Below, one piece after another: positions 2,880 through 44,840 of a stretch of DNA of 64,000 nucleotides. Location of the stretch: assembly GCF_003019035.1 (NCBI RefSeq), contig NZ_CP027447.1, one strand, 5' to 3'. A program made the position numbers and the translations under genes. Origin of the DNA: Escherichia coli (GTDB taxonomy: Bacteria > Pseudomonadota > Gammaproteobacteria > Enterobacterales > Enterobacteriaceae). Positions within the stretch are counted from its first letter, which is position 1, and each line of letters opens with the position of its first letter. Under the pieces are notes generated by a model, which was not told the DNA's origin, ran no database searches, and saw nothing but the letters and a program-made list of their open reading frames with translations.

Positions 2880-2896
2880 ACACATTTAATAAGAAA

Positions 2897-2926
2897 AAGG
2901 GCGGTCAGAAGATCGCCCTTTTTTAC
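2897..2926 (+). terminator. Rho-independent terminator downstream of pgm
   Basis: GC-rich hairpin aagggcggtcagaagatcgccctt followed by T-run. Confidence 0.75.
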
Positions 2927-2934
2927 TTATGACT

Positions 2935-3033
2935 GCCTGATGCGCTACGCTTATCAGGCTTGGGAAGATGGTGCAATGTATTGAATTTGCTCTATTTTGT
3001 AGGCCGGATAAGGCGTTCACGCCGCATCCGGCA
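2935..3033. repeat. REP/BIME element (two REP palindromes)
   Basis: gcctgatgcgctacgcttatcaggc and aggccggataaggcgttcacgccgcatccggca match the E. coli REP consensus. Confidence 0.8.
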
Positions 3034-3083
3034 TGAACAACGAGCGCTTTGCCAACAAACTGAATAGCTCAAGGGAATTCAAA

Positions 3084-3578: not shown

Positions 3579-3618
3579 AATAGCGAGTCCGGGAATGAAA
3601 CCCGGACCTGAACATGTC

Positions 3619-4269: not shown

Positions 4270-4391
4270 CGCTACTTGCTCCTTGTGTGCTACGGTGTCA
4301 TTTATGATGAGGCATTGTATGGGACATTTTTTAAATATTAAGTTCCTTATATTTGAATAAAAAATGACTTTATCCATACATTGCCACTTTT

Positions 4392-4530
4392 TTCAAAGCA
4401 TAAACCGATACCCAATACCGGTTTCAGTAATGAAATGGCGGGGCGGACGAGATCCTGTTCCAGTTTTTGTCGCAAATGCCTCATATAATTACGCAAATAG
4501 TTGCTGTGTTCGACCGCGTTTGGACCCTAC
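4392..4530 (-). pseudogene. Paralogous fragment of the kdpE 3' end (response-regulator C-terminal remnant)
   Basis: About 140 bp roughly 90 percent identical to kdpE 3' end at 8734-8875 (aaagcataaaccgatacccaataccggtttcagtaatgaaatggcgg...); no start codon or receiver domain. Confidence 0.8.
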
Positions 4531-4577
4531 ACCTGCCGGATGCGGCATAAATAACGAACTCTTTGTCAACAAACAGA

Positions 4578-4606
4578 AAGGGCGATCATTCAATCGCCCT
4601 TTTTTA
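4578..4606. terminator. Hairpin terminator between the kdpE fragment and potE, probably bidirectional
   Basis: aagggcgatcattcaatcgccct hairpin followed by T-run on plus strand, A-run on the other side. Confidence 0.65.
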
Positions 4607-4617
4607 TTTCGCTTTTT

Positions 4618-5937: not shown

Positions 5938-8132
5938 AATTTTTCCCCTTTCAACAGGATGCTTTGCGCATCACGAGGCTTGATGACATAGCACCAAACT
6001 TGCTTACGACCATCATGTTCTTCGATATAGACACCCTGAAGCTCCGGTGCAAAACCTGGCAGCAGGTTGATCCCTTCTTCCAGAGCGCTGAAGTAACGCA
6101 GAACAGCACCACCCCAGATTTCACCCGGAACAACACACAGCACACCCGGAGGATAAGGAAGCGCACCTTCTGCAGCGATACGGCCTTCTGCATCCGGCAG
6201 ACGAACCAGCTCCACTTCACCGCGTAAATAGGCGTAGTTGGCTTCTTGTGGATTCATGCTGACACGTGGGAAGTGTTCCTTACGAAACATCTCTTTTTGC
6301 AGTTGTTTCACGTTGTGACGGGCATACAAATCATGCATTTCCTGACACAACTGACGCAGGGTATAACCGGTGTAGCGCTCTTCATGCTGTTTGTAGATGG
6401 AAGGCAGTACTTCTGATAATGGCGCGTCGGACTCAAGCAGTTTTTCGAAGCGTACCAGCAGAGCAGCAAGTTGCTGAAGTTTGGCCATATCTTCTGCCGG
6501 AGTCAGCAGAAAGAGGATGGAGTTAAGATCGCATTTTTCCGGCACTACGCCATTTTCGCGCAGGAAGTTAGCAAGAATCGTCGCGGGTACACCGAACGCT
6601 TCATATTCGCCGTTACGTGCATCAATACCTGGGGTTGTCAGCAACAGTTTGCACGGATCGACAAAGTATTGATTCTCTGCATAGCCTTCAAAAGAATGCC
6701 AGTGCTCACCTGGTACAAACTGGAAGAAGCGCAGATCAACCGCAATTTGCGCTGTTTCATACGACTGCCAGGGTTTACCATCCACCAGTTCAGGTACGAA
6801 TGGACGAATATGCTGACAGTTATCGAGGATCAGTTTGCGGGCATTAATGCCATTTACCACACAATCCATCCACATATTACGACCGCTGACACCTTCATGC
6901 ATTTTGGCGTTGATATCCAGTGCGGCAAACAGCGGATAGAACGGGCTGGTGGAGGCATGCATCATAAAGGCGTTGTTCATGCGTTTGTGCGGTACATAAC
7001 GCTGTTGCCCTTTGATATGGCTGTCTTTTTTATGGATTTGTGAAGTCTGGGAAAAACCAGCCTGCTGTTTATGCACAGATTGCGTAACCAGAATACCCGG
7101 ATCGTTCTCATTAAGATCCAGCAACAGTGGTGAACAGTCCGCCATCATCGGGATAAACTGCTCATAGCCGACCCATGCGGAGTCAAAGAGGATGTAGTCA
7201 CACAGATGACCAATTTTATCCACCACCTGACGGGCGTTATAAATCGTACCGTCGTAAGTGCCTAGCTGAATAACGGCGAGGCGGAAAGGACGCGCCTCTT
7301 TTGCCCGCTGCGGTGCGACTTCTGTAATCAGTTCGCGCAGGTAATTTTCTTCGAAGCAGTGGGCATCAATACCACCGATAAAGCCATACGGGTTGCGTGC
7401 GGTTTCCAGATAAACTGGTGTTGCGCCAGCCTGTAGCAACGCTCCGTGGTGATTAGATTTATGGTTATTACGGTCAAACAGCACCAGATCCCCCGGTGTT
7501 AACAGGGCGTTTAAAACCACTTTGTTAGAAGATGAAGTGCCATTTAGAACGAAGTATGTTTTATCGGCATTAAACACTTTTGCCGCATGTTGCTGTGCAA
7601 TGCATGGCGCGCCTTCGTGAATCAGCAGATCGCCCATTGCCACATCCGCGTTGCACAAGTCAGCACGGAACAGCGCCTCACCAAAGTATTCCACAAACTG
7701 ATTCCCCGCCGGATGGCGACGGAAAAATTCGCCGCCCTGATGACCGGGGCAATCAAACGCGCTGTTACCCTGATTGACATAATCGACCAGTGCGCGGAAG
7801 AAGGGCGGGCGCAGTTGAGTTTCATAATGGCTGGCTGCGGTTTCTAACTGACGACCATAAAATTCTCGTCGCGATTCGCAATTCTCAAAGACACCCGAAA
7901 TACGGGGCAAATACTCTGCGGGTACACGTTCTTGATTTTCAGTAGCAATAAATACCGGGATGCCATAACCCGTGGCATCGATTTCATCGAGTTTTCCGCG
8001 TGTAACATCGTTGAGCGATAAAACTATTGCCGCCACATCGATATTACTGTTTTCATTAATATAGATACATTCTCGCTGCGTGGTAAAACAGTCCGGGCAA
8101 GAATCACTAACCGCAATTTTTAATTTTGACAT
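5934..8132 (-). CDS. speF: Inducible ornithine decarboxylase SpeF (732 aa)
   Basis: ORF 5934..8210 with start at MSKLKIAVSDSCPDC; PLP-dependent Orn/Lys/Arg decarboxylase; speF-potE operon. Confidence 0.95.
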   Translation of the reverse strand: MSKLKIAVSDSCPDCFTTQRECIYINENSNIDVAAIVLSLNDVTRGKLDEIDATGYGIPVFIATENQERVPAEYLPRISGVFENCESRREFYGRQLETAASHYETQLRPPFFRALVDYVNQGNSAFDCPGHQGGEFFRRHPAGNQFVEYFGEALFRADLCNADVAMGDLLIHEGAPCIAQQHAAKVFNADKTYFVLNGTSSSNKVVLNALLTPGDLVLFDRNNHKSNHHGALLQAGATPVYLETARNPYGFIGGIDAHCFEENYLRELITEVAPQRAKEARPFRLAVIQLGTYDGTIYNARQVVDKIGHLCDYILFDSAWVGYEQFIPMMADCSPLLLDLNENDPGILVTQSVHKQQAGFSQTSQIHKKDSHIKGQQRYVPHKRMNNAFMMHASTSPFYPLFAALDINAKMHEGVSGRNMWMDCVVNGINARKLILDNCQHIRPFVPELVDGKPWQSYETAQIAVDLRFFQFVPGEHWHSFEGYAENQYFVDPCKLLLTTPGIDARNGEYEAFGVPATILANFLRENGVVPEKCDLNSILFLLTPAEDMAKLQQLAALLVRFEKLLESDAPLSEVLPSIYKQHEERYTGYTLRQLCQEMHDLYARHNVKQLQKEMFRKEHFPRVSMNPQEANYAYLRGEVELVRLPDAEGRIAAEGALPYPPGVLCVVPGEIWGGAVLRYFSALEEGINLLPGFAPELQGVYIEEHDGRKQVWCYVIKPRDAQSILLKGEKL

Positions 8133-23883: not shown

Positions 23884-24732
23884 ATGGAACTTAAAAAATT
23901 GATGGAGCATATTTCTATTATCCCAGATTACAGACAAGCCTGGAAAGTGGAACATAAATTGTCTGATATTCTACTGTTGACTATTTGTGACGTTATTTCT
24001 GGTGCAGAAGGTTGGGAAGATATAGAGGATTTTGGGGAAACACATCTCGATTTTTTAAAACAATATGGTGATTTTGAAAATGGTATTCCTGTTCACGATA
24101 CCATTGCCAGAGTTGTATCCTGTATCAGTCCTGCAAAATTTCACGAGTGCTTTATTAACTGGATGCGTGACTGCCATTCTTCAGATGATAAAGACGTCAT
24201 TGCAATTGATGGAAAAACGCTCCGGCACTCTTATGACAAGAGTCGCCGCAAGGGAGCGATTCATGTCATTAGTGCGTTCTCAACAATGCACAGTCTGGTC
24301 ATCGGACAGATCAAGACGGATGAGAAATCCAATGAGATCACAGCTATCCCGGAACTTCTTAACATGCTGAATATTAAAGGAAAAATCATCACAACTGATG
24401 CGATGGGTTGCCAGAAAGATATTGCAGAGAAGATACAAAAACAGGGCGGTGATTATTTATTCGCTGTAAAAGGAAACCAGGGGCGGCTAAATAAAGCCTT
24501 CGAGGAAAAATTTCCGCTGAAAGAATTAAATAATCCAGAGCATGGCAGTTACGCAATGAGTGAAAAGAGTCACGGCAGAGAAGAAATCCGTCTTCATATT
24601 GTTTGCGATGTCCCTGATGAACTTATTGATTTCACGTTTGAATGGAAAGGGCAGCCATGGACAGAAAATATCTGGCGTCAGTCCTTGCGGGGAGCGTGCT
24701 TTCGTAATTTTGCCCTGCTACAACAGGATTAA
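23884..24732 (+). mobile_element. H-repeat-associated protein / ISAs1-family transposase, apparently C-terminally truncated (282 aa)
   Basis: [52 protein letters not shown] typical of E. coli H-rpt (YbfD/YhhI) proteins; shorter than the full-length family (~378 aa). Confidence 0.75.
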
Positions 24733-24792
24733 CTTCACAAACATCATTTGCCAACGTCTACACTTACTCCTGTTAATATCTCAGGAGCAGTA

Positions 24793-25302
24793 ATGAATCA
24801 GCAACGATTTGATGAAAGCACTCTAATCCGTATCTTCGCGCTTTATGAGTTACATCGACTGAAAGAACATGGCTTAACGCGCGGGGCACTCAACGATTAT
24901 CACAGCCGCTATAAACTCGTCTTTCTGGCCCATTCCCAGTCCGAGTACCGCAAACTTGGCCCGTTTGTGGCTGATATTCACCAGTGGCAAAATCTGGATG
25001 ACTATTACAACCAGTACCGCCAACGCGTAATTGTTTTGCTTTCTCACCCTGCCAACCGGCGTGATCATACTAACGTTTTGATGCACGTTCAGGGTTATTT
25101 TCGCCCTCATATTGATTCCACAGAACGCCAGCAGCTGGCTGCGCTTATCGACAGTTATCGCCGTGGCGAGCAACCACTTCTTGCGCCGCTGATGCGTATC
25201 AAACACTATATGGCGCTTTATCCTGACGCCTGGCTTTCAGTGCAGCGTTATTTCGAACTTTGGCCGTGTGTGATTAACTTGCGCCATTCAGGAGTTTTAT
25301 GA
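24793..25302 (+). CDS. ybgA: DUF1722 protein YbgA (169 aa)
   Basis: ORF 24748..25302 with start MNQQRFDESTLIRIFALYELHRL preceded by GGAG; stop overlaps phr start. Confidence 0.85.
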   Translation: MNQQRFDESTLIRIFALYELHRLKEHGLTRGALNDYHSRYKLVFLAHSQSEYRKLGPFVADIHQWQNLDDYYNQYRQRVIVLLSHPANRRDHTNVLMHVQGYFRPHIDSTERQQLAALIDSYRRGEQPLLAPLMRIKHYMALYPDAWLSVQRYFELWPCVINLRHSGVL

Positions 25303-26717
25303 CTACCCATCTGGTCTGGTTTCGCCAGGATTTACGTCAGCACGATAATCTCGCGCTGGCTGCCGCCTGCCGCAATTCGTCTGCGCGCGTGCTGGCGTTG
25401 TATATCGCTACACCACGCCAGTGGGCGGCGCATAACATGTCGCCGCGTCAGGCTGAACTTATCAATGCTCAACTGAATGGGCTACAAATCGCGCTGGCGG
25501 AAAAAGGCATTCCTTTGCTGTTTCATGAAGTGGATGACTTTGCCGCCAGCGTCGAAATAGTTAAACAGGTGTGCGCGGAAAATCGTGTTACCCATCTGTT
25601 TTATAACTATCAGTATGAGGTGAATGAGCGGGCGCGGGATGTGCAGGCTGAGAGGGCGCTGCGTAACGTGGTGTGTGAAGGATTTGACGACGGCGTGATC
25701 CTGCCGCCGGGGGCGGTGATGACTGGCAATCATGAGATGTACAAAGTCTTTACGCCATTTAAAAACGCCTGGCTTAAACGGCTGCGAGAAGGGATGTCGG
25801 AGTGCGTCGCTGCGCCAAAAGTACGTAGTAGCGGATCGATAGATCCCGCGCCATCCATTACGCTGAATTATCCTCGTCAGCCTTTCGATACTGCGCATTT
25901 CCCGGTGGAAGAGAAAGCGGCGATTGCGCAATTACGCCAGTTTTGCCAGAACGGTGCCGGAGAGTATGAGCAACAGCGAGATTTCCCTGCGGTAGAAGGC
26001 ACCAGCCGTTTGTCCGCCAGCCTGGCAACGGGCGGGTTATCGCCTCGCCAGTGTTTGCATCGCCTGTTGGCGGAACAGCCGCAGGCGCTGGACGGTGGGG
26101 CCGGTAGTATCTGGCTTAATGAGCTGATCTGGCGCGAGTTTTACCGTCATCTGATAACGTATTACCCCTCGCTGTGTAAACATCGTCCGTTTATTGTCTG
26201 GACCGACCGCGTGCAGTGGCAGAGCAATTCCGCGCATTTAAAGGCCTGGCAGGAAGGCAAAACGGGATACCCGATTGTTGATGCTGCCATGCGTCAGCTT
26301 AACAGCACTGGCTGGATGCATAACCGGCTACGGATGATTACAGCCAGTTTTTTGGTGAAAGATTTATTGATCGACTGGCGCGAAGGTGAGCGATATTTCA
26401 TGTCGCAGCTGATTGATGGTGATTTGGCAGCCAATAACGGTGGCTGGCAGTGGGCCGCTTCAACCGGAACCGATGCAGCGCCGTATTTTCGTATTTTTAA
26501 CCCGACAACCCAGGGCGAGAAATTTGACCGCGAAGGCGAGTTTATCCGCCAGTGGCTACCGGAACTGCGCGATGTGCCAGGGAAAGTGGTGCATGAGCCG
26601 TGGAAGTGGGCGCAGAAAGCAGGTGTGACGCTGGATTATCCGCAACCGATAGTTGATCACAAAGAGGCAAGGCTGCGAACGCTGGCAGCGTACGAAGAAG
26701 CGAGGAAAGGAGCCTGA
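25299..26717 (+). CDS. phr: Deoxyribodipyrimidine photolyase (472 aa)
   Basis: MTTHLVWFRQDLRQHDNLALAAA and C-terminal FAD-binding motifs (WREFY, GWMHNRLRM). Confidence 0.95.
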   Translation: MTTHLVWFRQDLRQHDNLALAAACRNSSARVLALYIATPRQWAAHNMSPRQAELINAQLNGLQIALAEKGIPLLFHEVDDFAASVEIVKQVCAENRVTHLFYNYQYEVNERARDVQAERALRNVVCEGFDDGVILPPGAVMTGNHEMYKVFTPFKNAWLKRLREGMSECVAAPKVRSSGSIDPAPSITLNYPRQPFDTAHFPVEEKAAIAQLRQFCQNGAGEYEQQRDFPAVEGTSRLSASLATGGLSPRQCLHRLLAEQPQALDGGAGSIWLNELIWREFYRHLITYYPSLCKHRPFIVWTDRVQWQSNSAHLKAWQEGKTGYPIVDAAMRQLNSTGWMHNRLRMITASFLVKDLLIDWREGERYFMSQLIDGDLAANNGGWQWAASTGTDAAPYFRIFNPTTQGEKFDREGEFIRQWLPELRDVPGKVVHEPWKWAQKAGVTLDYPQPIVDHKEARLRTLAAYEEARKGA

Positions 26718-26758
26718 TAAAACGCAGCGAGCGTTTTATCAGGTATGGTGCTGGCCTA

Positions 26759-28423
<1,665 letters not shown>

Positions 28424-28510
28424 TTAATATGTCAAAAGATTGGCTATCGACGAACAGGCGAGGTAACGCTATGTTAACGGTGTAGCTATCAGAATACGGA
28501 AGGCGCGAAG

Positions 28511-29254
28511 ATGAAAAACACCGAACTGGAACAACTGATTAACGAAAAACTGAACAGCGCGGCGATTAGTGATTATGCGCCGAATGGTTTGCAGGTGGAA
28601 GGCAAAGAGACGGTGCAAAAAATTGTTACCGGTGTCACCGCCAGCCAGGCTTTGCTCGATGAAGCGGTGCGTCTGGGCGCGGATGCGGTCATTGTGCATC
28701 ATGGCTACTTCTGGAAAGGTGAATCTCCGGTCATTCGCGGAATGAAGCGTAACCGTTTAAAAACGTTGCTGGCGAATGATATCAACCTGTATGGCTGGCA
28801 TCTGCCCCTGGACGCGCATCCGGAGCTGGGTAATAACGCACAACTGGCGGCGTTACTGGGGATCACGGTCATGGGCGAAATTGAGCCGTTGGTGCCGTGG
28901 GGCGAACTGACCATGCCTGTGCCGGGACTGGAACTGGCCTCCTGGATTGAAGCGCGTCTGGGACGTAAGCCGTTATGGTGTGGCGATACCGGACCTGAGG
29001 TGGTCCAGCGCGTTGCCTGGTGCACGGGCGGCGGGCAAAGTTTTATCGATAGCGCCGCGCGTTTTGGCGTGGATGCTTTTATTACTGGCGAAGTTTCTGA
29101 ACAGACCATTCATTCAGCCCGCGAGCAGGGATTGCATTTTTATGCTGCGGGTCACCATGCCACTGAACGTGGTGGTATTCGCGCGTTGAGCGAGTGGCTG
29201 AATGAAAATACCGATCTTGATGTGACCTTTATTGATATTCCTAATCCTGCATAA
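28511..29254 (+). CDS. ybgI: Nif3-family metal-binding protein YbgI (247 aa)
   Basis: MKNTELEQLINEKLNSAAISDYAPNGLQVEG; conserved position upstream of pxpBCA. Confidence 0.9.
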   Translation: MKNTELEQLINEKLNSAAISDYAPNGLQVEGKETVQKIVTGVTASQALLDEAVRLGADAVIVHHGYFWKGESPVIRGMKRNRLKTLLANDINLYGWHLPLDAHPELGNNAQLAALLGITVMGEIEPLVPWGELTMPVPGLELASWIEARLGRKPLWCGDTGPEVVQRVAWCTGGGQSFIDSAARFGVDAFITGEVSEQTIHSAREQGLHFYAAGHHATERGGIRALSEWLNENTDLDVTFIDIPNPA

Positions 29255-29276
29255 CGAATAATCAGAGGGATCGAAA

Positions 29277-29933
29277 GTGCAACGAGCGCGTTGTTATCTG
29301 ATAGGTGAAACGGCGGTAGTGCTGGAGCTGGAACCGCCGGTGACGCTGGCTAGCCAGAAACGGATCTGGCGACTGGCGCAGCGTCTGGTGGATATGCCAA
29401 ATGTGGTTGAAGCGATACCGGGGATGAACAATATCACGGTGATTTTACGTAATCCTGAGTCGCTGGCGCTGGATGCCATAGAGCGTTTGCAACGCTGGTG
29501 GGAGGAGAGTGAGGCGCTGGAGCCGGAGTCTCGCTTTATTGAAATTCCGGTGATTTACGGTGGCGCAGGCGGACCGGATTTGGCGGTGGTCGCGGCGCAT
29601 TGTGGGTTGAGCGAAAAACAGGTTGTTGAATTGCACTCCTCCGTGGACTACGTGGTCTGGTTTTTAGGTTTTCAACCGGGCTTCCCGTATCTCGGGAGTT
29701 TGCCGGAACAACTACACACGCCACGGCGCGCTGAACCGCGCTTGCTTGTTCCGGCAGGTTCTGTCGGGATCGGCGGGCCGCAGACTGGTATTTATCCGCT
29801 GGCAACGCCGGGTGGCTGGCAGTTGATTGGTCATACCTCACTCAGCCTGTTTGATCCGGCGCGTGACGAACCCATCTTATTACGTCCGGGAGACAGCGTG
29901 CGCTTTGTACCGCAGAAGGAGGGAGTATGCTGA
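29277..29933 (+). CDS. pxpB: 5-oxoprolinase subunit B (218 aa)
   Basis: ybgJ-like sequence; overlapping operon ybgJKL. Confidence 0.85.
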
Positions 29934-30859
29934 AGATTATTCGTGCGGGCATGTATACCACTGTGCAGGATGGCGGTCGTCACGGTTTTCGCCAGTCGGG
30001 TATCAGCCACTGCGGCGCACTGGATATGCCCGCGTTACGCATTGCTAACCTACTGGTGGGTAATGACGCCAATGCCCCCGCGCTGGAGATCACGCTCGGT
30101 CAGTTAACGGTTGAGTTCGAAACTGATGGGTGGTTTGCTCTGACGGGGGCCGGTTGCGAAGCGCGGCTGGATGATAACGCCGTCTGGACCGGCTGGCGAT
30201 TGCCGATGAAAGCAGGCCAGCGTTTAACGCTTAAACGCCCGCAGCACGGGATGCGCAGTTATCTGGCGGTCGCGGGTGGTATTGATGTTCCGGCGGTAAT
30301 GGGGTCATGCAGTACCGATCTCAAAGTGGGGATTGGCGGGCTGGAAGGCCGTTTACTGAAGGATGGTGACCGACTCCCGATTGGCAAAGCGAAGCGTGAT
30401 TTTATGGAAGCGCAGGGCGTTAAACAGCTGCTGTGGGGCAACCGCATTCGCGCCTTGCCGGGGCCGGAATATCATGAGTTCGATCGCGCCTCGCAGGATG
30501 CATTCTGGCGTTCGCCCTGGCAGCTTAGCTCGCAAAGTAACCGGATGGGCTATCGCTTACAGGGACAAATTTTAAAACGCACCACCGATCGCGAACTGTT
30601 ATCTCACGGTTTGTTACCAGGTGTGGTGCAGGTGCCGCATAACGGGCAGCCCATTGTGTTGATGAACGATGCGCAAACCACCGGTGGTTACCCGCGTATT
30701 GCCTGTATCATTGAGGCTGATATGTACCATCTGGCGCAAATTCCGCTCGGTCAGCCGATTCATTTTGTCCAGTGTTCACTGGAAGAGGCACTGAAAGCAC
30801 GGCAAGATCAGCAACGTTATTTCGAACAATTAGCGTGGCGGCTGCACAATGAAAATTGA
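29927..30859 (+). CDS. pxpC: 5-oxoprolinase subunit C (310 aa)
   Basis: ybgK-like; overlaps pxpB stop and pxpA start. Confidence 0.85.
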
Positions 30860-31583
30860 CCTGAACGCCGATCTGGGCGAAGGTTGTGTCAGCGACGCAG
30901 AGCTATTAACGCTGGTTTCCTCTGCCAATATTGCCTGTGGATTTCATGCTGGCGATGCGCAAATCATGCACGCTTGCGTGCGTGAAGCAATAAAAAATGG
31001 TGTCGCGATTGGCGCTCATCCGAGTTTTCCCGACAGGGAAAATTTTGGTCGCAGCGCTATGCAGCTGCCGCCAGAAACCGTTTACGCCCAGACGCTGTAT
31101 CAAATTGGCGCGCTGGCAGCGATTGCCCGTGCGCAAGGCGGCGTAATGCGTCATGTCAAACCGCACGGCATGTTATACAACCAGGCGGCGAAAGAGGCAC
31201 AACTGGCAGACGCCATCGCCAGAGCGGTATACGCTTGCGATCCGGCATTGATTCTCGTCGGGCTGGCGGGAAGCGAGCTGATTCGTGCAGGCAAGCAATA
31301 TGGCCTGACAACGCGCGAGGAAGTGTTTGCCGATCGCGGTTACCAGGCTGACGGCTCGCTGGTGCCGCGAAGCCAGCCAGGCGCGCTGATTGAAGACGAA
31401 GAACAGGCGCTTGCGCAAACGCTGGAGATGGTGCAACACGGCAGAGTCAAAAGTATCACCGGCGAATGGGCAACGGTCACGGCGCAAACGGTCTGCCTGC
31501 ATGGCGATGGCGAGCACGCACTGGCGTTCGCCCGCCGATTACGAGCTACATTTGCTGAAAAGGGGATTGTTGTCGCAGCATAA
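30849..31583 (+). CDS. pxpA: 5-oxoprolinase subunit A, LamB/YcsF family (244 aa)
   Basis: [36 protein letters not shown] LamB/YcsF motif. Confidence 0.9.
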
Positions 31584-31618
31584 CCCCGCTTAATAAAGAA
31601 TGAAAAAAGGATATCACC

Positions 31619-32410
31619 ATGCCTGAAGGCCCGGAGATCCGCCGTGCAGCGGATAACCTGGAGGCGGCGATCAAAGGCAAACCACTAACTGATGTCTGGT
31701 TTGCCTTCCCGCAGTTAAAATCTTATCAATCACAACTTATCGGTCAACACGTTACCCATGTGGAAACGCGTGGTAAGGCGTTGTTAACTCATTTTTCCAA
31801 CGAATTAACGCTCTACAGCCATAATCAGCTTTACGGCGTCTGGCGCGTGGTTGATACCGGCGAAGAGCCGCAGACCACGCGAGTATTGCGGGTAAAACTG
31901 CAAACGGCTGACAAAACCATTCTGCTTTATAGCGCCTCGGATATTGAGATGTTGACCCCGGAACAACTGACCACGCATCCGTTTTTACAACGCGTTGGTC
32001 CCGATGTGCTGGATCCGAATCTGACGCCGGAGGTGGTAAAGGAACGATTATTGTCGCCGCGCTTTCGTAACCGTCAGTTTGCTGGATTACTGCTCGATCA
32101 GGCGTTTCTGGCTGGGCTTGGCAATTATTTGCGGGTGGAGATCCTCTGGCAGGTTGGGTTGACTGGAAATCATAAAGCGAAAGATCTCAATGCGGCGCAA
32201 CTGGATGCACTCGCACACGCGTTACTGGATATTCCTCGACTTTCTTACGCTACGCGGGGGCAGGTGGATGAAAACAAATATCATGGGGCGCTGTTTCGCT
32301 TTAAGGTTTTTCATCGTGATGGCGAACCTTGCGAACGCTGTGGCGGCATCATTGAGAAAACCACGCTGTCATCGCGCCCGTTTTACTGGTGCCCTGGCTG
32401 CCAGCACTAG
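31619..32410 (+). CDS. nei: Endonuclease VIII (263 aa)
   Basis: [26 protein letters not shown] Fpg/Nei N-terminus and C-terminal zinc finger CERCGG...CPGCQ. Confidence 0.95.
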
Positions 32411-33453
32411 GCCGAACGCTTCGGCGCATAGGTTGAAATAAACCGTGCGATGGCAGGCCCCGTCAGCAAAATACTGAACAGGCGTAGGGTTTGCATCGCC
32501 ATGATGAGCGCCATATCGGCATTGCTCCCTGCGGCGATGACCGCCACGGTATCAAGCCCGCCGGGGCTGGTGGCGAGGTAGGCGGTCATAAAATCAATAT
32601 GCATAAACCGGGTCAGCCCCCACGCCATACCCGCACAAATAGCCAGCAGAGCAAAAATCGACAGCAGGATTTGTGGCAGTGGGCGCAATGCCCGCAGTAA
32701 TATTTGCTTATCGAAACCAAGACCAATCCGCCAGCCAATTGCCATATACGCCATCGCCAGCAGCCATTCCGGGAGTTCAATCGTGATGAGCTGACCAGAC
32801 TGGAGCACTGCGCCCGCCAGCATCGGGATGAGCATCGTGCCGGAAGGAAGACGTAGCAAGCATCCCGCCGTACCGGCAACGACCGCGAGCAAAATCGTAA
32901 GCAGGAGATTAATGCTCACTGGCGGGAACCAGACGATCTGCTGGTTAACCGCTTCAGCGTTATCGCCCAGCATCATGCGGGTGACCAGAACAGCGGCTCC
33001 TGCGACGAACAGCACTCGCAGATATTGCATAAACGCCACCAGGCGAATATCTGCGCCGTAATCTTGCGCCATTGCGACCATTGCCGCCGCGCCGCCAGGA
33101 GAAGAACCCCAGGCACCGGTATTTCCAGGCAGTGAGCTATAGCGCACCAATAACCAACCCACGATGGCGCTGGAAAGTAACGTCACCAGTAAAATAGCTA
33201 ACACAATCGGCCAGTTCACCGCTAGCGTGGTCAGGATCGAACCGGTCAGGTTTTGCGCAATCATGCAGCCAAGAATGGCCTGCGCGGCGAGAAAAGCGGA
33301 GCGGGGGAGTTGCAGGGTAACCCCGCGCATACTGAAGATGATCCCGGCGAGCATCGGCCCAAGTAATAGCGCCGCCGGGAGATGTAATCCGAGGAAGCCA
33401 ATAGAAAGTAGAAGTGAGAGCACACATAACATTCCCCACTGCAAAACTGGCAT
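32407..33453 (-). CDS. abrB: AbrB-family membrane protein (348 aa)
   Basis: ORF 32407..33498; start at [23 protein letters not shown]; polytopic membrane protein. Confidence 0.85.
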
Positions 33454-33604
33454 CCTTCGCTTCCTCATTATTTTCTCTTTGGTGTATCGATACAGCATAA
33501 AGAAAGCTGGGTCTGGAAAAAATAACGGTAATCAAGGAAAAGGGGAAAATCAGCAATAATCTGAATACGTTGCCCTTTCCGGCTGAAAAGGGCGTCGTGT
33601 TAAA

Positions 33605-33979
33605 TCAGTTATAGTTAATCTTAAAAAGTACCACTGTATCGAAGGGACCCGCCGCGATGAGAGTGCCAGGTGTGGACGATAATTCAGCCGTATAGGTTTT
33701 TTCGTAGATCAGCATATCACTGGTGAAATCGGCGTATTCAGCATATTTATTGAATGTATAAGGCGAGGCGTTTTCATCCAGCAAACGTAGCTTCAGACTA
33801 TTACCAATCAACAATGCTTTATCTTCTTCAACCAACGTTTCTTCGGTATAAAAGGAGGAACTGACTTTAAATCCGTCGGTGCATTGGTCATTTTGTGATT
33901 TTGTCGTGTTAATACTGAATGTTTTCGACATTGTGTGGCGGCGAATATCCAGCAGATTAAATTTACCAAAATCAATCAC
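33605..33979 (-). pseudogene. Possible truncated fimbrial-subunit remnant (ybgD-like C-terminal part)
   Basis: ORF lacks a signal peptide but ends with beta-strand-rich fimbrial-like C-terminus ...TVVLFKINYN; region between abrB and gltA is only about 670 bp, so the ybgOPQD fimbrial operon seems absent. Confidence 0.4.
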
Positions 33980-34125
33980 CTGTGTTTCCGGTGAAATATT
34001 TTTTCACCTTATTAATGGGTATTTGCATCTGGTTTAATTTTTACAATTTTTTATGTTCAGCCATATAAAAAGAACCCGCTCTATTAAAGGCGGGTCCGGA
34101 AAGTGAACGGCTTAGCAATCAACCA

Positions 34126-35409
34126 TTAACGCTTGATATCGCTTTTAAAGTCGCGTTTTTCATATCCTGTATACAGCTGACGCGGACGGGCAATCTTCAT
34201 ACCGTCACTGTGCATTTCGCTCCAGTGGGCGATCCAGCCAACGGTACGCGCCATCGCGAAGATCACGGTGAACATAGAAGACGGAATACCCATCGCTTTC
34301 AGGATGATACCAGAGTAGAAATCGACGTTCGGGTAGAGTTTCTTCTCGATAAAGTACGGGTCGTTCAGCGCGATGTTTTCCAGCTCCATAGCCACTTCCA
34401 GCAGGTCATCTTTGGTACCCAGCTCTTTCAGCACTTCATGGCAGGTTTCACGCATTACGGTGGCGCGCGGGTCGTAATTTTTGTACACGCGGTGCCCGAA
34501 GCCCATCAGGCGGAAAGAGTCATTTTTGTCTTTCGCACGACGAACAAATTCCGGAATGTGTTTAACGGAGCTGATTTCTTCCAGCATTTTCAGCGCCGCT
34601 TCGTTAGCACCACCGTGCGCAGGTCCCCACAGTGAAGCAATACCTGCTGCGATACAGGCAAACGGGTTCGCCCCCGAAGAGCCAGCGGTACGCACGGTGG
34701 AGGTAGAGGCGTTCTGTTCATGGTCAGCGTGCAGGATCAGAATACGGTCCATAGCACGTTCCAGAATCGGATTAACTTCATACGGTTCGCACGGCGTGGA
34801 GAACATCATATTCAGGAAGTTACCGGCATAGGAGAGATCGTTGCGCGGGTAAACGAATGGCTGACCAATGGAATACTTGTAACACATCGCGGCCATGGTC
34901 GGCATTTTCGACAGCAGGCGGAACGCGGCAATTTCACGATGACGAGGATTGTTAACATCCAGCGAGTCGTGATAGAACGCCGCCAGCGCGCCGGTAATAC
35001 CACACATGACTGCCATTGGATGCGAGTCGCGACGGAAAGCATGGAACAGACGGGTAATCTGCTCGTGGATCATGGTATGACGGGTCACCGTAGTTTTAAA
35101 TTCGTCATACTGTTCCTGAGTTGGTTTTTCACCATTCAGCAGGATGTAACAAACTTCCAGGTAGTTAGAATCGGTCGCCAGCTGATCGATCGGGAAACCG
35201 CGGTGCAGCAAAATACCTTCATCACCATCAATAAAAGTAATTTTAGATTCGCAGGATGCGGTTGAAGTGAAGCCTGGGTCAAAGGTGAACACACCTTTTG
35301 AACCGAGAGTACGGATATCAATAACATCTTGACCCAGCGTGCCTTTCAGCACATCCAGTTCAACAGCTGTGTCCCCGTTGAGGGTGAGTTTTGCTTTTGT
35401 ATCAGCCAT
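34126..35409 (-). CDS. gltA: Citrate synthase (427 aa)
   Basis: [36 protein letters not shown] and citrate synthase active-site region. Confidence 0.97.
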
Positions 35410-36117
35410 TTAAGGTCTCCTTAGCGCCTTATTGCGTAAGACTGCCGGAACTTAAATTTGCCTTCGCACATCAACCTGGCTTTACCCGTTTGTTATTTGG
35501 CTCGCCGCTCTGTGAAAGAGGGGAAAACCTGGGTACAGAGCTCTGGGCGCTTGCAGGTAAAGGATCCATTGATGACGAATAAATGGCGAATCAAGTACTT
35601 AGCAATCCGAATTATTAAACTTGTCTACCACTAATAACTGTCCCGAATGAATTGGTCAATACTTCCACACTGTTACATAAGTTAATCTTAGGTGAAATAC
35701 CGACTTCATAACTTTTACGCATTATATGCTTTTCCTGGTAATGTTTGTAACAACTTTGTTGAATGATTGTCAAATTAGATGATTAAAAATTAAATAAATG
35801 TTGTTATCGTGACCTGGATCACTGTTCAGGATAAAACCCGACAAACTATATGTAGGTTAATTGTAATGATTTTGTGAACGGCCTATACTGCCGCTAGGTC
35901 TCCGGAACACCCTGCAATCCCGAGCCACCCAGCGTTGTAACGTGTCGTTTTCGCATCTGGAAGCAGTGTTTTGCATGACGCGCAGTTATAGAAAGGACGC
36001 TGTCTGACCCGCAAGCAGACCGGAGGAAGGAAATCCCGACGTCTCCTGGTAACAGAAAGTTAACCTCTGTGCCCGTAGTCCCCAGGGAATAATAAGAACA
36101 GCATGTGGGCGTTATTC
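35410..36117. promoter_or_regulatory. gltA-sdhC divergent promoter/regulatory region
   Basis: About 700 bp AT-rich non-coding DNA between divergent gltA and sdhCDAB-sucABCD. Confidence 0.7.
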
Positions 36118-36507
36118 ATGATAAGAAATGTGAAAAAACAAAGACCTGTTAATCTGGACCTACAGACCATCCGGTTCCCCGTCACGGCGATAGCGTCCAT
36201 TCTCCATCGCGTTTCCGGTGTGATCACCTTTGTTGCAGTGGGCATCCTGCTGTGGCTTCTGGGTACCAGCCTCTCTTCCCCTGAAGGTTTCGAGCAAGCT
36301 TCTGCGATTATGGGCAGCTTCTTCGTCAAATTTATCATGTGGGGCATCCTTACCGCTCTGGCGTATCACGTCGTCGTAGGTATTCGCCACATGATGATGG
36401 ATTTTGGCTATCTGGAAGAAACATTCGAAGCGGGTAAACGCTCCGCCAAAATCTCCTTTGTTATTACTGTCGTGCTTTCACTTCTCGCAGGAGTCCTCGT
36501 ATGGTAA
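36118..36507 (+). CDS. sdhC: Succinate dehydrogenase cytochrome b556 subunit (129 aa)
   Basis: [34 protein letters not shown]. Confidence 0.95.
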
Positions 36508-36848
36508 GCAACGCCTCCGCATTAGGACGCAATGGCGTACATGATTTCATCCTCGTTCGCGCTACCGCTATCGTCCTGACGCTCTACATCATTTATATGG
36601 TCGGTTTTTTCGCTACCAGTGGCGAGCTGACATATGAAGTCTGGATTGGTTTCTTCGCCTCTGCGTTCACCAAAGTGTTCACCCTGCTGGCGCTGTTTTC
36701 TATCTTGATTCATGCCTGGATCGGCATGTGGCAGGTGTTGACCGACTACGTTAAACCGCTGGCCTTGCGCCTGATGCTGCAACTGGTGATTGTCGTTGCA
36801 CTGGTGGTTTACGTGATTTATGGATTCGTTGTGGTGTGGGGTGTGTGA
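36501..36848 (+). CDS. sdhD: Succinate dehydrogenase membrane anchor subunit (115 aa)
   Basis: [30 protein letters not shown]; overlaps sdhC and sdhA. Confidence 0.95.
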
Positions 36849-38614
36849 TGAAATTGCCAGTCAGAGAATTTGATGCAGTTGTGATTGGTGCCGGTGGCGC
36901 AGGTATGCGCGCGGCGCTGCAAATTTCCCAGAGCGGTCAGACCTGTGCGCTGCTCTCTAAAGTCTTCCCGACCCGTTCCCATACCGTTTCTGCGCAAGGC
37001 GGCATTACCGTTGCGCTGGGTAATACCCATGAAGATAACTGGGAATGGCATATGTACGATACCGTAAAAGGGTCGGACTATATCGGTGACCAGGACGCGA
37101 TTGAATATATGTGTAAAACCGGGCCGGAAGCGATTCTGGAACTCGAACACATGGGCCTGCCGTTCTCGCGTCTTGATGATGGTCGTATCTATCAACGTCC
37201 GTTTGGCGGTCAGTCGAAAAACTTCGGCGGCGAGCAGGCGGCACGCACTGCGGCGGCTGCTGACCGTACCGGTCACGCACTGTTGCACACGCTTTATCAG
37301 CAGAACCTGAAAAACCACACCACTATTTTCTCCGAGTGGTATGCGCTGGATCTGGTGAAAAACCAGGATGGCGCGGTGGTGGGTTGTACTGCACTGTGCA
37401 TCGAAACTGGTGAAGTGGTTTATTTCAAAGCCCGCGCTACCGTGCTGGCGACTGGCGGGGCAGGGCGTATTTATCAGTCCACCACTAACGCCCACATTAA
37501 CACTGGCGACGGTGTCGGCATGGCTATCCGTGCAGGCGTACCGGTGCAGGATATGGAAATGTGGCAGTTCCACCCGACCGGTATTGCAGGTGCGGGCGTC
37601 CTGGTCACCGAAGGTTGCCGTGGTGAAGGCGGTTATCTGCTGAACAAACATGGCGAACGCTTTATGGAGCGTTATGCGCCGAACGCCAAAGACCTGGCGG
37701 GCCGTGACGTGGTGGCGCGTTCCATCATGATTGAAATCCGTGAAGGTCGCGGCTGTGATGGTCCGTGGGGGCCACATGCGAAACTGAAACTCGATCACCT
37801 GGGTAAAGAAGTTCTCGAATCCCGTCTGCCGGGTATCCTGGAACTCTCCCGTACCTTCGCTCACGTTGATCCGGTGAAAGAGCCGATTCCGGTTATCCCA
37901 ACCTGTCACTACATGATGGGCGGTATTCCGACCAAAGTGACCGGTCAGGCGCTGACGGTGAATGAGAAAGGCGAAGATGTGGTGGTTCCGGGGCTGTTTG
38001 CCGTTGGTGAAATCGCTTGTGTATCGGTACACGGCGCTAACCGTCTGGGCGGCAACTCGCTGCTGGACCTGGTGGTCTTTGGTCGCGCAGCGGGTCTGCA
38101 TCTGCAAGAGTCTATCGCCGAGCAGGGCGCACTGCGCGATGCCAGCGAGTCTGATGTAGAAGCGTCTCTGGATCGCCTGAACCGCTGGAACAACAACCGT
38201 AACGGTGAAGATCCGGTGGCGATCCGTAAAGCACTGCAAGAATGTATGCAGCATAACTTCTCGGTCTTCCGTGAAGGTGATGCGATGGCGAAAGGTCTTG
38301 AGCAGTTGAAAGTTATCCGCGAGCGCCTGAAAAATGCCCGTCTGGATGACACTTCCAGCGAGTTCAACACCCAGCGCGTTGAGTGCCTGGAACTTGATAA
38401 CCTGATGGAAACGGCGTATGCAACGGCTGTTTCTGCCAACTTCCGTACCGAAAGCCGTGGCGCGCATAGCCGCTTCGACTTCCCGGATCGTGATGATGAA
38501 AACTGGCTGTGCCACTCCCTGTATCTGCCAGAGTCGGAATCCATGACGCGCCGAAGCGTCAACATGGAACCGAAACTGCGCCCGGCATTCCCGCCGAAGA
38601 TTCGTACTTACTAA
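36848..38614 (+). CDS. sdhA: Succinate dehydrogenase flavoprotein subunit (588 aa)
   Basis: ORF 36836..38614; start [25 protein letters not shown] (FAD-binding GxGxxG). Confidence 0.97.
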
Positions 38615-38629
38615 TGCGGAGACAGGAAA

Positions 38630-39346
38630 ATGAGACTCGAGTTTTCAATTTATCGCTATAACCCGGATGTTGATGATGCTCCGCGTATGCAGGATTACAC
38701 CCTGGAAGCGGAAGAAGGTCGTGACATGATGCTGCTGGATGCGCTTATCCAGCTGAAAGAGAAAGATCCCAGCCTGTCGTTCCGCCGCTCCTGCCGCGAA
38801 GGTGTGTGCGGTTCCGACGGTCTGAACATGAACGGCAAGAATGGTCTGGCCTGTATTACCCCGATTTCGGCACTCAACCAGCCGGGCAAGAAGATTGTGA
38901 TTCGCCCGCTGCCAGGTTTACCGGTGATCCGCGATTTGGTGGTAGACATGGGACAATTCTATGCGCAATATGAGAAAATTAAGCCTTACCTGTTGAATAA
39001 TGGACAAAATCCGCCAGCTCGCGAGCATTTACAGATGCCAGAGCAGCGCGAAAAACTCGACGGGTTGTATGAATGTATTCTCTGCGCATGTTGTTCAACC
39101 TCTTGTCCGTCTTTCTGGTGGAATCCCGATAAGTTTATCGGCCCGGCAGGCTTGTTAGCGGCATATCGTTTCCTGATCGATAGCCGTGATACCGAGACTG
39201 ACAGCCGCCTCGACGGTTTGAGCGATGCATTCAGTGTATTCCGCTGTCACAGCATCATGAACTGCGTCAGTGTATGTCCGAAGGGGCTGAACCCGACGCG
39301 CGCCATCGGCCATATCAAGTCGATGTTGTTGCAACGTAATGCGTAA
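38630..39346 (+). CDS. sdhB: Succinate dehydrogenase iron-sulfur subunit (238 aa)
   Basis: Fe-S cysteine clusters (CREGVCGSDG, CILCACCSTSCP, CHSIMNCVSVCP). Confidence 0.97.
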   Translation: MRLEFSIYRYNPDVDDAPRMQDYTLEAEEGRDMMLLDALIQLKEKDPSLSFRRSCREGVCGSDGLNMNGKNGLACITPISALNQPGKKIVIRPLPGLPVIRDLVVDMGQFYAQYEKIKPYLLNNGQNPPAREHLQMPEQREKLDGLYECILCACCSTSCPSFWWNPDKFIGPAGLLAAYRFLIDSRDTETDSRLDGLSDAFSVFRCHSIMNCVSVCPKGLNPTRAIGHIKSMLLQRNA

Positions 39347-39546
39347 TTAAATGTTGATGCCGGGGAAATCCCCCGGCTATTCAGGAAATCTTTAAAAACT
39401 GCCCCTGACACTAAGACAGTTTTTAAAGGTTCCTTCGCGAGCCACTACGTAGACAAGAGCTCGCAAGTGAACCCCGGCACGCACATCACTGTGCGTGGTA
39501 GTATCCACGGCGAAGTAAGCATAAAAAAGATGCTTAAGGGATCACG

Positions 39547-42348
39547 ATGCAGAACAGCGCTTTGAAAGCCTGGTTGGACTCTTCTTACCTCTCTGGCGCA
39601 AACCAGAGCTGGATAGAACAGCTCTATGAAGACTTCTTAACCGATCCTGACTCGGTTGACGCTAACTGGCGTTCGACGTTCCAGCAGTTACCTGGTACGG
39701 GAGTCAAACCGGATCAATTCCACTCTCAAACGCGTGAATATTTCCGCCGCCTGGCGAAAGACGCTTCACGTTACTCTTCAACGATCTCCGACCCTGACAC
39801 CAATGTGAAGCAGGTTAAAGTCCTGCAGCTCATTAACGCATACCGCTTCCGTGGTCACCAGCATGCGAATCTCGATCCGCTGGGACTGTGGCAGCAAGAT
39901 AAAGTGGCCGATCTGGATCCGTCTTTCCACGATCTGACCGAAGCAGACTTCCAGGAGACCTTCAACGTCGGTTCATTTGCCAGCGGCAAAGAAACCATGA
40001 AACTCGGCGAGCTGCTGGAAGCCCTCAAGCAAACCTACTGCGGCCCGATTGGTGCCGAGTATATGCACATCACCAGCACCGAAGAAAAACGCTGGATCCA
40101 ACAGCGTATCGAGTCTGGTCGCGCGACTTTCAATAGCGAAGAGAAAAAACGCTTCTTAAGCGAACTGACCGCCGCTGAAGGCCTTGAACGTTACCTCGGC
40201 GCAAAATTCCCTGGCGCAAAACGCTTCTCGCTGGAAGGCGGTGACGCGTTAATCCCGATGCTTAAAGAGATGATCCGCCACGCTGGCAACAGCGGCACCC
40301 GCGAAGTGGTTCTCGGGATGGCGCACCGTGGTCGTCTGAACGTGCTGGTGAACGTGCTGGGTAAAAAACCGCAAGACTTGTTCGACGAGTTTGCCGGTAA
40401 ACATAAAGAACACCTCGGCACGGGCGACGTGAAATACCACATGGGCTTCTCGTCTGACTTCCAGACCGATGGCGGCCTGGTGCACCTGGCGCTGGCGTTT
40501 AACCCGTCTCACCTTGAGATTGTCAGCCCGGTAGTTATCGGTTCTGTTCGTGCCCGTCTGGACAGACTCGATGAGCCGAGCAGCAACAAAGTGCTGCCAA
40601 TCACCATCCACGGTGACGCCGCAGTGACCGGGCAGGGCGTGGTTCAGGAAACCCTGAACATGTCGAAAGCGCGTGGTTATGAAGTTGGCGGTACGGTACG
40701 TATCGTTATCAACAACCAGGTTGGCTTCACCACCTCTAATCCGCTGGATGCTCGTTCTACACCGTACTGTACTGATATCGGTAAGATGGTTCAGGCACCG
40801 ATTTTCCACGTAAACGCGGATGATCCGGAAGCCGTTGCTTTTGTGACCCGTCTGGCGCTCGATTTCCGTAACACCTTTAAACGTGATGTCTTCATCGACC
40901 TGGTGTGCTACCGCCGTCACGGCCACAACGAAGCCGACGAGCCGAGCGCAACCCAGCCGCTGATGTATCAGAAAATCAAAAAACATCCGACGCCGCGCAA
41001 AATCTACGCTGACAAGCTGGAGCAGGAAAAAGTCGCGACGCTGGAAGATGCCACCGAGATGGTTAACCTGTACCGCGATGCGCTGGATGCTGGCGATTGC
41101 GTTGTAGCAGAGTGGCGTCCGATGAACATGCACTCTTTCACCTGGTCGCCGTACCTCAACCACGAATGGGACGAAGAGTACCCGAACAAAGTTGAGATGA
41201 AGCGCCTGCAGGAACTGGCTAAACGCATCAGCACGGTGCCGGAAGCGGTTGAAATGCAGTCTCGCGTTGCCAAGATTTATGGCGATCGCCAGGCGATGGC
41301 AGCCGGTGAGAAACTGTTCGACTGGGGCGGCGCGGAAAACCTCGCTTACGCCACGCTGGTTGACGAAGGCATTCCGGTTCGCCTGTCGGGTGAAGACTCC
41401 GGTCGCGGTACCTTCTTCCACCGCCACGCGGTGATCCACAACCAGTCTAACGGTTCCACTTACACGCCGCTGCAACACATCCATAACGGCCAGGGCGCGT
41501 TCCGTGTCTGGGACTCCGTACTGTCTGAAGAAGCCGTGCTGGCGTTTGAATACGGTTATGCCACCGCAGAACCACGCACTCTGACTATCTGGGAAGCGCA
41601 GTTCGGTGACTTCGCTAACGGTGCTCAGGTGGTTATCGACCAGTTCATCTCCTCTGGCGAACAGAAATGGGGCCGGATGTGTGGCCTGGTGATGTTGCTG
41701 CCGCACGGTTACGAAGGGCAGGGGCCGGAGCACTCCTCCGCGCGTCTGGAACGTTATCTGCAACTTTGCGCTGAGCAAAACATGCAGGTTTGCGTACCGT
41801 CTACCCCGGCACAGGTTTACCACATGCTGCGTCGTCAGGCGCTGCGCGGGATGCGTCGTCCGCTGGTCGTGATGTCGCCGAAATCCCTGCTGCGTCATCC
41901 GCTGGCGGTTTCCAGCCTCGAAGAACTGGCGAACGGCACCTTCCTGCCAGCCATCGGTGAAATCGACGAGCTTGATCCGAAGGGCGTGAAGCGCGTAGTG
42001 ATGTGTTCTGGTAAGGTTTATTACGACCTGCTGGAACAACGTCGTAAGAACAATCAACACGATGTCGCCATTGTGCGTATCGAGCAACTCTACCCGTTCC
42101 CGCATAAAGCGATGCAGGAAGTGTTGCAGCAGTTTGCTCACGTCAAGGATTTTGTCTGGTGCCAGGAAGAGCCGCTCAATCAGGGCGCATGGTACTGCAG
42201 CCAGCATCATTTCCGTGAAGTGATTCCGTTTGGGGCTTCTCTGCGTTATGCAGGCCGCCCGGCCTCCGCCTCTCCGGCGGTAGGGTATATGTCCGTTCAC
42301 CAGAAACAGCAGCAAGATCTGGTTAATGACGCGCTGAACGTCGAATAA
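39547..42348 (+). CDS. sucA: 2-oxoglutarate dehydrogenase E1 component (933 aa)
   Basis: [38 protein letters not shown]; length and operon position. Confidence 0.97.
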
Positions 42349-42362
42349 ATAAAGGATACACA

Positions 42363-43580
42363 ATGAGTAGCGTAGATATTCTGGTCCCTGACCTGCCTGA
42401 ATCCGTAGCCGATGCCACCGTCGCAACCTGGCATAAAAAACCCGGCGACGCAGTCGTACGTGATGAAGTGCTGGTAGAAATCGAAACTGACAAAGTGGTA
42501 CTGGAAGTACCGGCATCAGCAGACGGCATTCTGGATGCGGTTCTGGAAGATGAAGGTACAACGGTAACGTCTCGTCAGATCCTTGGTCGCCTGCGTGAAG
42601 GCAACAGCGCGGGTAAAGAAACCAGCGCCAAATCTGAAGAGAAAGCGTCCACTCCGGCGCAACGCCAGCAGGCGTCTCTGGAAGAGCAAAACAACGATGC
42701 GTTAAGCCCGGCGATCCGTCGCCTGCTGGCTGAACATAACCTCGACGCCAGCGCCATTAAAGGCACCGGTGTGGGTGGTCGTCTGACCCGTGAAGATGTG
42801 GAAAAACATCTGGCGAAAGCCCCGGCGAAAGAGTCTGCTCCGGCAGCGGCTGCTCCGGCGGCGCAACCGGCCCTGGCTGCACGTAGCGAAAAACGTGTGC
42901 CGATGACTCGCCTGCGTAAGCGTGTGGCAGAGCGTCTGCTGGAAGCGAAAAATTCCACCGCCATGCTGACCACGTTCAACGAAGTCAACATGAAGCCGAT
43001 TATGGATCTGCGTAAGCAGTACGGTGAAGCGTTTGAAAAACGCCACGGCATCCGTCTGGGCTTTATGTCCTTCTACGTGAAAGCGGTGGTTGAAGCCCTG
43101 AAACGTTACCCGGAAGTGAATGCGTCTATCGACGGTGATGATGTGGTCTACCACAACTATTTCGACGTCAGTATGGCGGTTTCTACGCCGCGCGGCCTGG
43201 TGACGCCGGTTCTGCGTGATGTGGATACCCTCGGCATGGCAGACATCGAGAAGAAAATTAAAGAGCTGGCAGTTAAAGGCCGTGACGGCAAGCTGACGGT
43301 TGAAGATCTGACCGGTGGTAACTTCACCATCACCAACGGTGGTGTGTTCGGTTCCCTGATGTCTACGCCGATCATCAACCCGCCGCAGAGCGCAATTCTG
43401 GGTATGCACGCTATCAAAGATCGTCCGATGGCGGTGAATGGTCAGGTTGAGATCCTGCCGATGATGTACCTGGCGCTGTCCTACGATCACCGTCTGATCG
43501 ATGGTCGCGAATCCGTGGGCTTCCTGGTAACGATCAAAGAGTTGCTGGAAGATCCGACGCGTCTGCTGCTGGACGTGTAG
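42363..43580 (+). CDS. sucB: Dihydrolipoyllysine-residue succinyltransferase E2 (405 aa)
   Basis: Lipoyl domain ([13 protein letters not shown]), linker, catalytic domain with DHRLIDG. Confidence 0.97.
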
Positions 43581-43673
43581 TAGTTTAAGTTTCACCTGCA
43601 CTGTAGACCGACGTGGATAGGGTGTCGGTCTACGGTTTAAAAGATAACGATTACTGAAGGATGGACAGAACAC

Positions 43674-44840
43674 ATGAACTTACATGAATATCAGGCAAAA
43701 CAACTTTTTGCCCGCTATGGCTTACCAGCACCGGTGGGTTATGCCTGTACTACTCCGCGCGAAGCAGAAGAAGCCGCTTCAAAAATCGGTGCCGGTCCGT
43801 GGGTAGTGAAATGTCAGGTTCACGCTGGTGGCCGCGGTAAAGCGGGCGGTGTGAAAGTGGTAAACAGCAAAGAAGACATCCGTGCTTTTGCAGAAAACTG
43901 GCTGGGCAAGCGTCTGGTAACGTATCAAACAGATGCCAATGGCCAACCGGTTAACCAGATTCTGGTTGAAGCAGCGACCGATATCGCTAAAGAGCTGTAT
44001 CTCGGTGCCGTTGTAGACCGTAGTTCACGTCGCGTGGTCTTTATGGCCTCCACCGAAGGCGGCGTGGAAATCGAAAAAGTGGCGGAAGAAACTCCGCACC
44101 TGATCCACAAAGTTGCGCTTGATCCGCTGACTGGCCCGATGCCGTATCAGGGACGCGAGCTGGCGTTCAAACTGGGTCTGGAAGGTAAACTGGTTCAGCA
44201 GTTCACCAAAATCTTCATGGGCCTGGCGACCATTTTCCTGGAGCGCGACCTTGCTCTTATCGAAATTAACCCGCTGGTTATTACCAAACAGGGCGATCTG
44301 ATCTGCCTCGACGGCAAACTGGGTGCTGACGGCAACGCACTGTTCCGCCAGCCTGATCTGCGCGAAATGCGTGACCAGTCGCAGGAAGATCCGCGTGAAG
44401 CACAGGCTGCACAGTGGGAACTGAACTACGTTGCGCTGGACGGTAACATCGGTTGTATGGTTAACGGCGCAGGCCTGGCGATGGGCACCATGGACATCGT
44501 TAAACTGCACGGCGGCGAACCGGCTAACTTCCTGGACGTTGGCGGCGGCGCAACCAAAGAGCGCGTAACCGAAGCGTTCAAAATCATCCTCTCTGACGAC
44601 AAAGTGAAAGCCGTTCTGGTTAACATCTTCGGCGGTATCGTTCGTTGCGACCTGATCGCTGACGGTATCATCGGCGCGGTAGCGGAAGTGGGTGTTAACG
44701 TACCGGTCGTGGTACGTCTGGAAGGTAACAACGCCGAACTCGGCGCGAAGAAACTGGCTGACAGCGGCCTGAATATTATTGCAGCAAAAGGTCTGACGGA
44801 TGCAGCTCAGCAGGTTGTTGCCGCAGTGGAGGGGAAATAA
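43674..44840 (+). CDS. sucC: Succinyl-CoA synthetase beta subunit (388 aa)
   Basis: [42 protein letters not shown]-grasp. Confidence 0.97.

Follow-up and report, generated by a model that had tools for sequence, protein, structure and literature searches.

A ybgO remnant between abrB and gltA of Escherichia coli as the probable scar of one old deletion of the Ybg fimbrial operon

How did an Escherichia coli strain come to have only a few hundred base pairs between abrB and gltA, and do they still encode a functional gene? In K-12 MG1655, the site is occupied by the cryptic chaperone-usher operon ybgO-ybgP-ybgQ-ybgD (b0716-b0719), flanked by abrB (b0715) and gltA (b0720), with one strand coding throughout. 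The window, that is, the whole stretch of 64,000 nucleotides that was analysed, represents at 30.8-38.6 kb the pxpA-nei-abrB ... gltA-sdhCDAB region of E. coli. The first-pass annotation had given the ybgOPQD layout for K-12, had put the gap at about 670 bp and had seen in it a single fimbrial-like ORF without a signal peptide. The MG1655 annotation and the analysis of the interval agree with these three statements. The proposed descent of the ORF from ybgD had to be corrected.

The abrB-gltA interval and its ybgO remnant

The gap covers 33454-34125 (672 bp; coordinates via the annotation of the identical record NZ_CP033635.1). Both neighbours are intact and located on the minus strand. The left neighbour abrB, a gene for an AbrB-family membrane protein/regulator, was identified at 32407-33453 by its ORF and by the annotation of NZ_CP033635.1, which is 100% identical. 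The right neighbour gltA, coding for citrate synthase, was identified at 34126-35409 by a 427-aa ORF and annotation.

The remnant lies at 33605-33997 on the minus strand, at the same site and on the same strand as the K-12 operon, and comprises the last 130 codons and the stop codon of ybgO, which codes for a putative fimbrial adhesin/minor subunit. The stretch 33300-33997 aligned without gaps to abrB and the ybgO 3' end of K-12, with 92% DNA identity over 698 nt. Translated, 33605-33997 matched residues 224-353 of K-12 YbgO with 124 of 130 amino acids identical (95%; BLASTP, E = 1e-90), a fimbrial relationship far beyond chance. The only recognisable domain of K-12 YbgO is the Pfam Fimbrial (pilin) domain at residues 218-353, and the remnant appears to be essentially this C-terminal pilin domain. 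The homology stops at 33997. YbgO residues 1-223, including the signal peptide and the N-terminal domain, are absent, and the fragment reads as a pseudogene, not as a complete ybgO gene. The Pfam model PF00419 (Fimbrial) scored the remnant at 17.9 bits (E = 0.0039, profile positions 23-151), below the gathering cut-off of 25.6. This weak score is attributed to an insensitivity of the model for YbgO: the full-length K-12 protein reached only 25.3 bits.

Only one ORF of at least 60 aa is located within the gap (33605-33979, minus strand, 124 aa, GTG start). It is the portion of the remnant from the first in-frame GTG onward and is overlapped by two trivial ORFs of 52-55 aa. As the parent of the remnant, ybgD was ruled out: the remnant aligns to ybgO, from whose 3' third it derives, and K-12 ybgD (L001 9230-9796) lies wholly inside the missing segment, gone together with its upstream region. 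A functional chaperone-usher operon is not present. The 672-bp interval holds just the 393-nt ybgO fragment, and the genes for the chaperone (ybgP), the usher (ybgQ) and the major subunit (ybgD) all map to the 4,748 bp that were deleted.

The flanks of the remnant are native. The abrB-ybgO intergenic region at 33454-33604 was kept whole and is colinear with K-12 (L001 4771-4921). K-12 and four further strains with an intact operon have the same spacing of 151 bp to abrB and the same strand. Inspection by eye suggested a short hairpin at about 33573-33594, just 3' of the ybgO stop codon. On the other side, 128 bp of gltA-downstream intergenic DNA are retained (33998-34125), 97-98% identical to one class of intact-operon alleles. 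RNA folding placed an intrinsic terminator of gltA at 34063-34097 on the minus strand, with the hairpin at 34072-34097 followed by a U-run down to 34063. The GC-rich hairpin is formed by GGACCCGCC...GCGGGUUC, with the U-run in UUUUUAUAU; the fold had -24.4 kcal/mol over an 89-nt stretch (z = -2.67). The terminator is intact at a distance of 65 nt to the deletion junction and is predicted to insulate the ybgO remnant against read-through from gltA. A search of the whole window with Rfam at gathering thresholds yielded no RNA family, and a promoter scan of 33400-34200 revealed no sigma-70-like site.

For a core locus of E. coli, the diversity of the 5' end of abrB, of the adjoining spacer and of ybgO is extremely high, as seen in comparisons of 33300-33997 with L001, L003, L004, L009 and L010. 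For the last 130 codons of intact ybgO alleles, the synonymous divergence ranged from 0.06 to 0.73, with an almost invariant protein (dN/dS 0.03-0.08). O157:H7-type alleles have a DNA identity of only 78-81%.

Endpoints and type of the deletion

The breakpoints were mapped with K-12 and three reference genomes carrying the gltA-downstream allele of the window type. The operon is intact in L003 and L004. The third reference, L005 (NZ_CP015229.1, strain 06-00048), has all four genes with a frameshifted ybgO. Against these three references, the left homology extended up to 33997 and the right homology started at 33998. The missing segment comprises 4,748 bp, corresponding to 2253-7000 in the coordinates of L003 and L004. 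Both flanks align to K-12 and the intact strains around this segment, in support of the deletion scar proposed in the first-pass annotation. Lost are the first 669 nt (223 codons) of ybgO, ybgP and ybgQ in full, and the homologue of ybgD along with 260 bp on its upstream side and the promoter region.

The junction ccggtgaaat/attttttcacc (33997/33998) joins ybgO directly to native gltA-downstream sequence without added bases. An IS element, terminal repeats, a target-site duplication and foreign DNA were looked for at the junction, and none were found. The two endpoints share no direct repeat of several bp or longer. In the intact alleles compared, the microhomology at the endpoints varied with the allele and amounted to 0-3 bp (A or ATA). 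With only 0-3 bp common to the endpoints, the event is assigned to illegitimate end-joining and not to homologous or slipped-strand recombination. Overall, the interval is very probably a scar left by one old deletion in the Ybg chaperone-usher operon, illegitimate (non-homologous) in type and about 4.75 kb in length. In the proposed course of events, one such deletion would have taken out the 5' two-thirds of ybgO, ybgP, ybgQ, ybgD and the ybgD promoter region, and homologous recombination would later have spread and reshuffled the scar.

The 35 bp at 33998-34032 do not align to K-12, which had suggested a non-templated filler. This was rejected, as the sequence from 33998 on is the native allele of a second class: over 1,300 genomes whose left flanks are different match it at 97-98%, and it lies beside intact operons there. 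The gltA-downstream intergenic region occurs in two sharply different allele classes, the window type and the K-12/ACN001 type. The two classes are about 80% identical, with the distal 35 bp unalignable (33998-34125 versus L001 10058-10185 and L009 11478-11605). The terminator hairpin is kept in both.

Frequency and known carriers

The frequency of the scar was determined in 5,426 complete E. coli genomes. In 557 genomes (about 10%), the interval is colinear across the junction. The ybgO 3' end was found in a non-scar context in about 4,200 genomes. A third arrangement, an island with genes for GntR, RraA, dehydrogenases, UxaA and a TRAP transporter between abrB and gltA, was present in 660 genomes (about 12%), which tallies with the approximately 665 genomes without any ybgO 3' end. 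The abrB-gltA site thus has three states: an intact ybg operon (about 77%), the scar (10%) and the TRAP-transporter island (12%).

An example of the island is located in NZ_OZ546943.1 (L008 9055-17085), where 8 kb between abrB and gltA replace ybg. They code for a GntR/FadR regulator, an RraA-family protein, a Zn-alcohol dehydrogenase, an SDR oxidoreductase, two UxaA-family hydrolases and a TRAP transporter. Like the scar, this arrangement lies between abrB and gltA and lacks ybg. Unlike the scar, it has different boundaries and content and no ybgO fragment, and only 46 bp separate the last TRAP transporter gene from gltA.

PGAP annotates the scar remnant as 'type 1 fimbrial protein, incomplete, missing N-terminus'. 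Strain SMS-3-5 (NC_010498.1), a member of phylogroup F and ST354 (PMC11537424), has the same junction and remnant and is 100% identical to the window over 33700-34125. Scar copies of the F type do not differ from the window. Copies of the B2 type have 19 variant sites within the remnant and an additional A at 34008/9. This second scar allele is carried by APEC O18, APEC O1 (NC_008563.1; B2, ST95), the E. coli type strain DSM 30083 and others. An annotated partial pseudogene between abrB and gltA is present in SMS-3-5, APEC O1, APEC O18, DSM 30083 and about 550 other complete genomes. The scar is a common deletion polymorphism that is already annotated and already known. Wurpel et al. classified Ybg as core-associated, with one shared location in nearly all genomes, and described the locus as 'not intact in many strains' and as missing from most ExPEC (PMC3559732). 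Searched for a description of the exact junction, the literature yielded only the general remark that Ybg loci are often not intact.

Over 20 kb (24000-44000), the window is 100% identical to the human E. coli strain SCU-301 (NZ_CP051751.1). An identity of at least 99% over this range was observed for just 27 of the 5,426 genomes. Other truncations of ybg probably arose independently: HZ13 (NZ_CP128609.1) and PEC240 (NZ_CM168014.1) match only the first 47-48 nt of a 228-nt ybgO block (approximately 33770-33817), with an annotation as 'fimbrial protein', and likely have a shorter remnant. In strain 06-00048, the operon is present (L005 1861-2923) and ybgO is annotated as frameshifted, which is another independent route to the loss of Ybg function.

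Origin of the scar and state of the remnant

Base-level inspection covered five of the 557 scar copies, from three backgrounds. Four of them, in the window, ECCNB12-2 (F type), APEC O18 and GU2018_CL13 (B2 type), have an identical junction, and the scar of Z1323CEC0015 (NZ_CP148423.1) is colinear across it. The junction occurs in at least three allelic backgrounds: the SMS-3-5 type of phylogroup F, the APEC O1/O18 type of B2 and one ACN001-like strain. On the gltA side, all five copies have three variants in common, none of which occurs in any intact allele of this class: a T in AATTTTTTAT, a missing A in AAAAAG and a G in AGTGAAC. In Z1323CEC0015, the right flank is of the scar type and the rest of the locus is ACN001-like, with ACN001 itself having a K-12-type intergenic allele. 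The scar-type tract of this strain is limited to 33982-34242 (at most about 260 bp). It looks like a lateral transfer of the deletion via a very short recombination patch, or like a later overwriting of the flanks. The shared right-flank variants and the Z1323CEC0015 tract suggest identity by descent and thereby point to a single origin, one deletion that would later have been spread by homologous recombination.

The abrB side of the scar alleles is a recombination mosaic. At 33476-33780, F and B2 scars have a common haplotype that is clearly distinct from all intact alleles examined, and these intact alleles share a run of alternative bases there. The following block of the window (33781-33983) has 98.2% identity with an intact allele that is very widespread; for the corresponding B2 block, the identity with intact alleles does not exceed 94.3%. 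The divergence between the backgrounds on the abrB side reaches within 16 nt of the junction, which is unusually close for a simple recombinational spread.

This proximity could mean that a sequence-directed hotspot has produced the same deletion repeatedly. Three allelic backgrounds whose left-hand sequences diverge as close as 16-42 nt to the junction have this junction in identical form, and a terminator-like scan placed it inside an inverted repeat with perfect 7-bp arms, GGTGAAA-tattt-TTTCACC (33990-34008), which might have guided the event. In a post-hoc test, only 0.8% of the window positions were so placed. A recurrent excision of ybg, enzyme-guided or at a hotspot, would account for both the position between the arms and the divergence to 16 nt; we give it a slim chance. 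The inverted repeat was itself built by the deletion, which brought together one arm in ybgO and a second arm in the DNA downstream of gltA, and its observation was post hoc. To our knowledge, no deletion mechanism uses a 7-bp stem across a 4.7-kb loop. Repeated deletion is also at odds with the three right-flank variants, present in all examined scar copies and not in intact alleles of the same class, and with the scar-type right flank of Z1323CEC0015, whose closest intact relative ACN001 is of the K-12 type. Recurrence is therefore considered highly unlikely. The opposite polarity, with the short interval as an ancestral empty site and a gain of ybg by insertion in K-12-type genomes, gains some appeal from the variability of the locus and its third state, the GntR/RraA/UxaA/TRAP-transporter island of the 660 genomes. 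An empty site would not contain an in-frame internal ybgO fragment that makes up one third of the gene and is cut off sharply at residue 224 of the 353 residues. The classification of Ybg as core-associated, with one shared location in nearly all genomes (Wurpel et al., PMC3559732), also argues against a gain by insertion, which can practically be dismissed.

A single deletion leaves the question of whether the remnant is still a gene. It could be expressed from the GTG at 33979 as a 124-aa pilin-domain protein without signal peptide and be kept by selection. Each of the five scar copies examined has an uninterrupted reading frame, and the comparison of the F-type and B2-type remnants gave a dN/dS of 0.17, not about 1; the five intact ybgO alleles had pairwise values of 0.03-0.08. 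The site-by-site analysis of the mosaic led to the rejection of selection as the cause. The low dN/dS between the scar alleles is attributed to the patch 33781-33983, which was imported from an intact allele and did not evolve in place. Of private nucleotide changes, the window allele has 6 nonsynonymous and 6 synonymous ones, the B2 allele 7 nonsynonymous and 11 synonymous ones. The nonsynonymous changes private to scar alleles hit residues that are invariant among the five intact alleles, and the private substitutions fit a relaxed constraint. Expression is further contradicted by the absence of a promoter-like site in 33400-34200, by the strong gltA terminator upstream and by the lack of a convincing ribosome-binding site ahead of the GTG in the sequence. 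In chaperone-usher systems, neither folding nor assembly by donor-strand complementation is possible for a pilin domain without signal peptide, chaperone and usher. A live gene is extremely unlikely. Located behind the gltA terminator, deprived of the operon promoter and without signal peptide, chaperone and usher, the remnant is most likely a dead, non-expressed pseudogene. The strain would be unable to make Ybg fimbriae. The deletion has spared abrB and gltA together with the control regions of each.

The first-pass annotation had also taken the scar as evidence for a lineage distinct from K-12 and as a strain-typing marker. The former is in line with the 100% matches to SMS-3-5 (phylogroup F) and SCU-301; together with the scar, these matches place the strain outside the K-12/A lineage. 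As a marker, the scar excludes K-12-like genomes and does not identify a single lineage, with 557 of 5,426 genomes and at least three allelic backgrounds as carriers. It is only a loose marker because the abrB side is a recombination mosaic and the scar has crossed backgrounds. With its three states, the abrB-gltA site is usable as a coarse marker; the scar is not a clean phylogenetic character, and its practical value is small. The locus is a small worked example of an old deletion polymorphism that was apparently reshuffled up to its junction.
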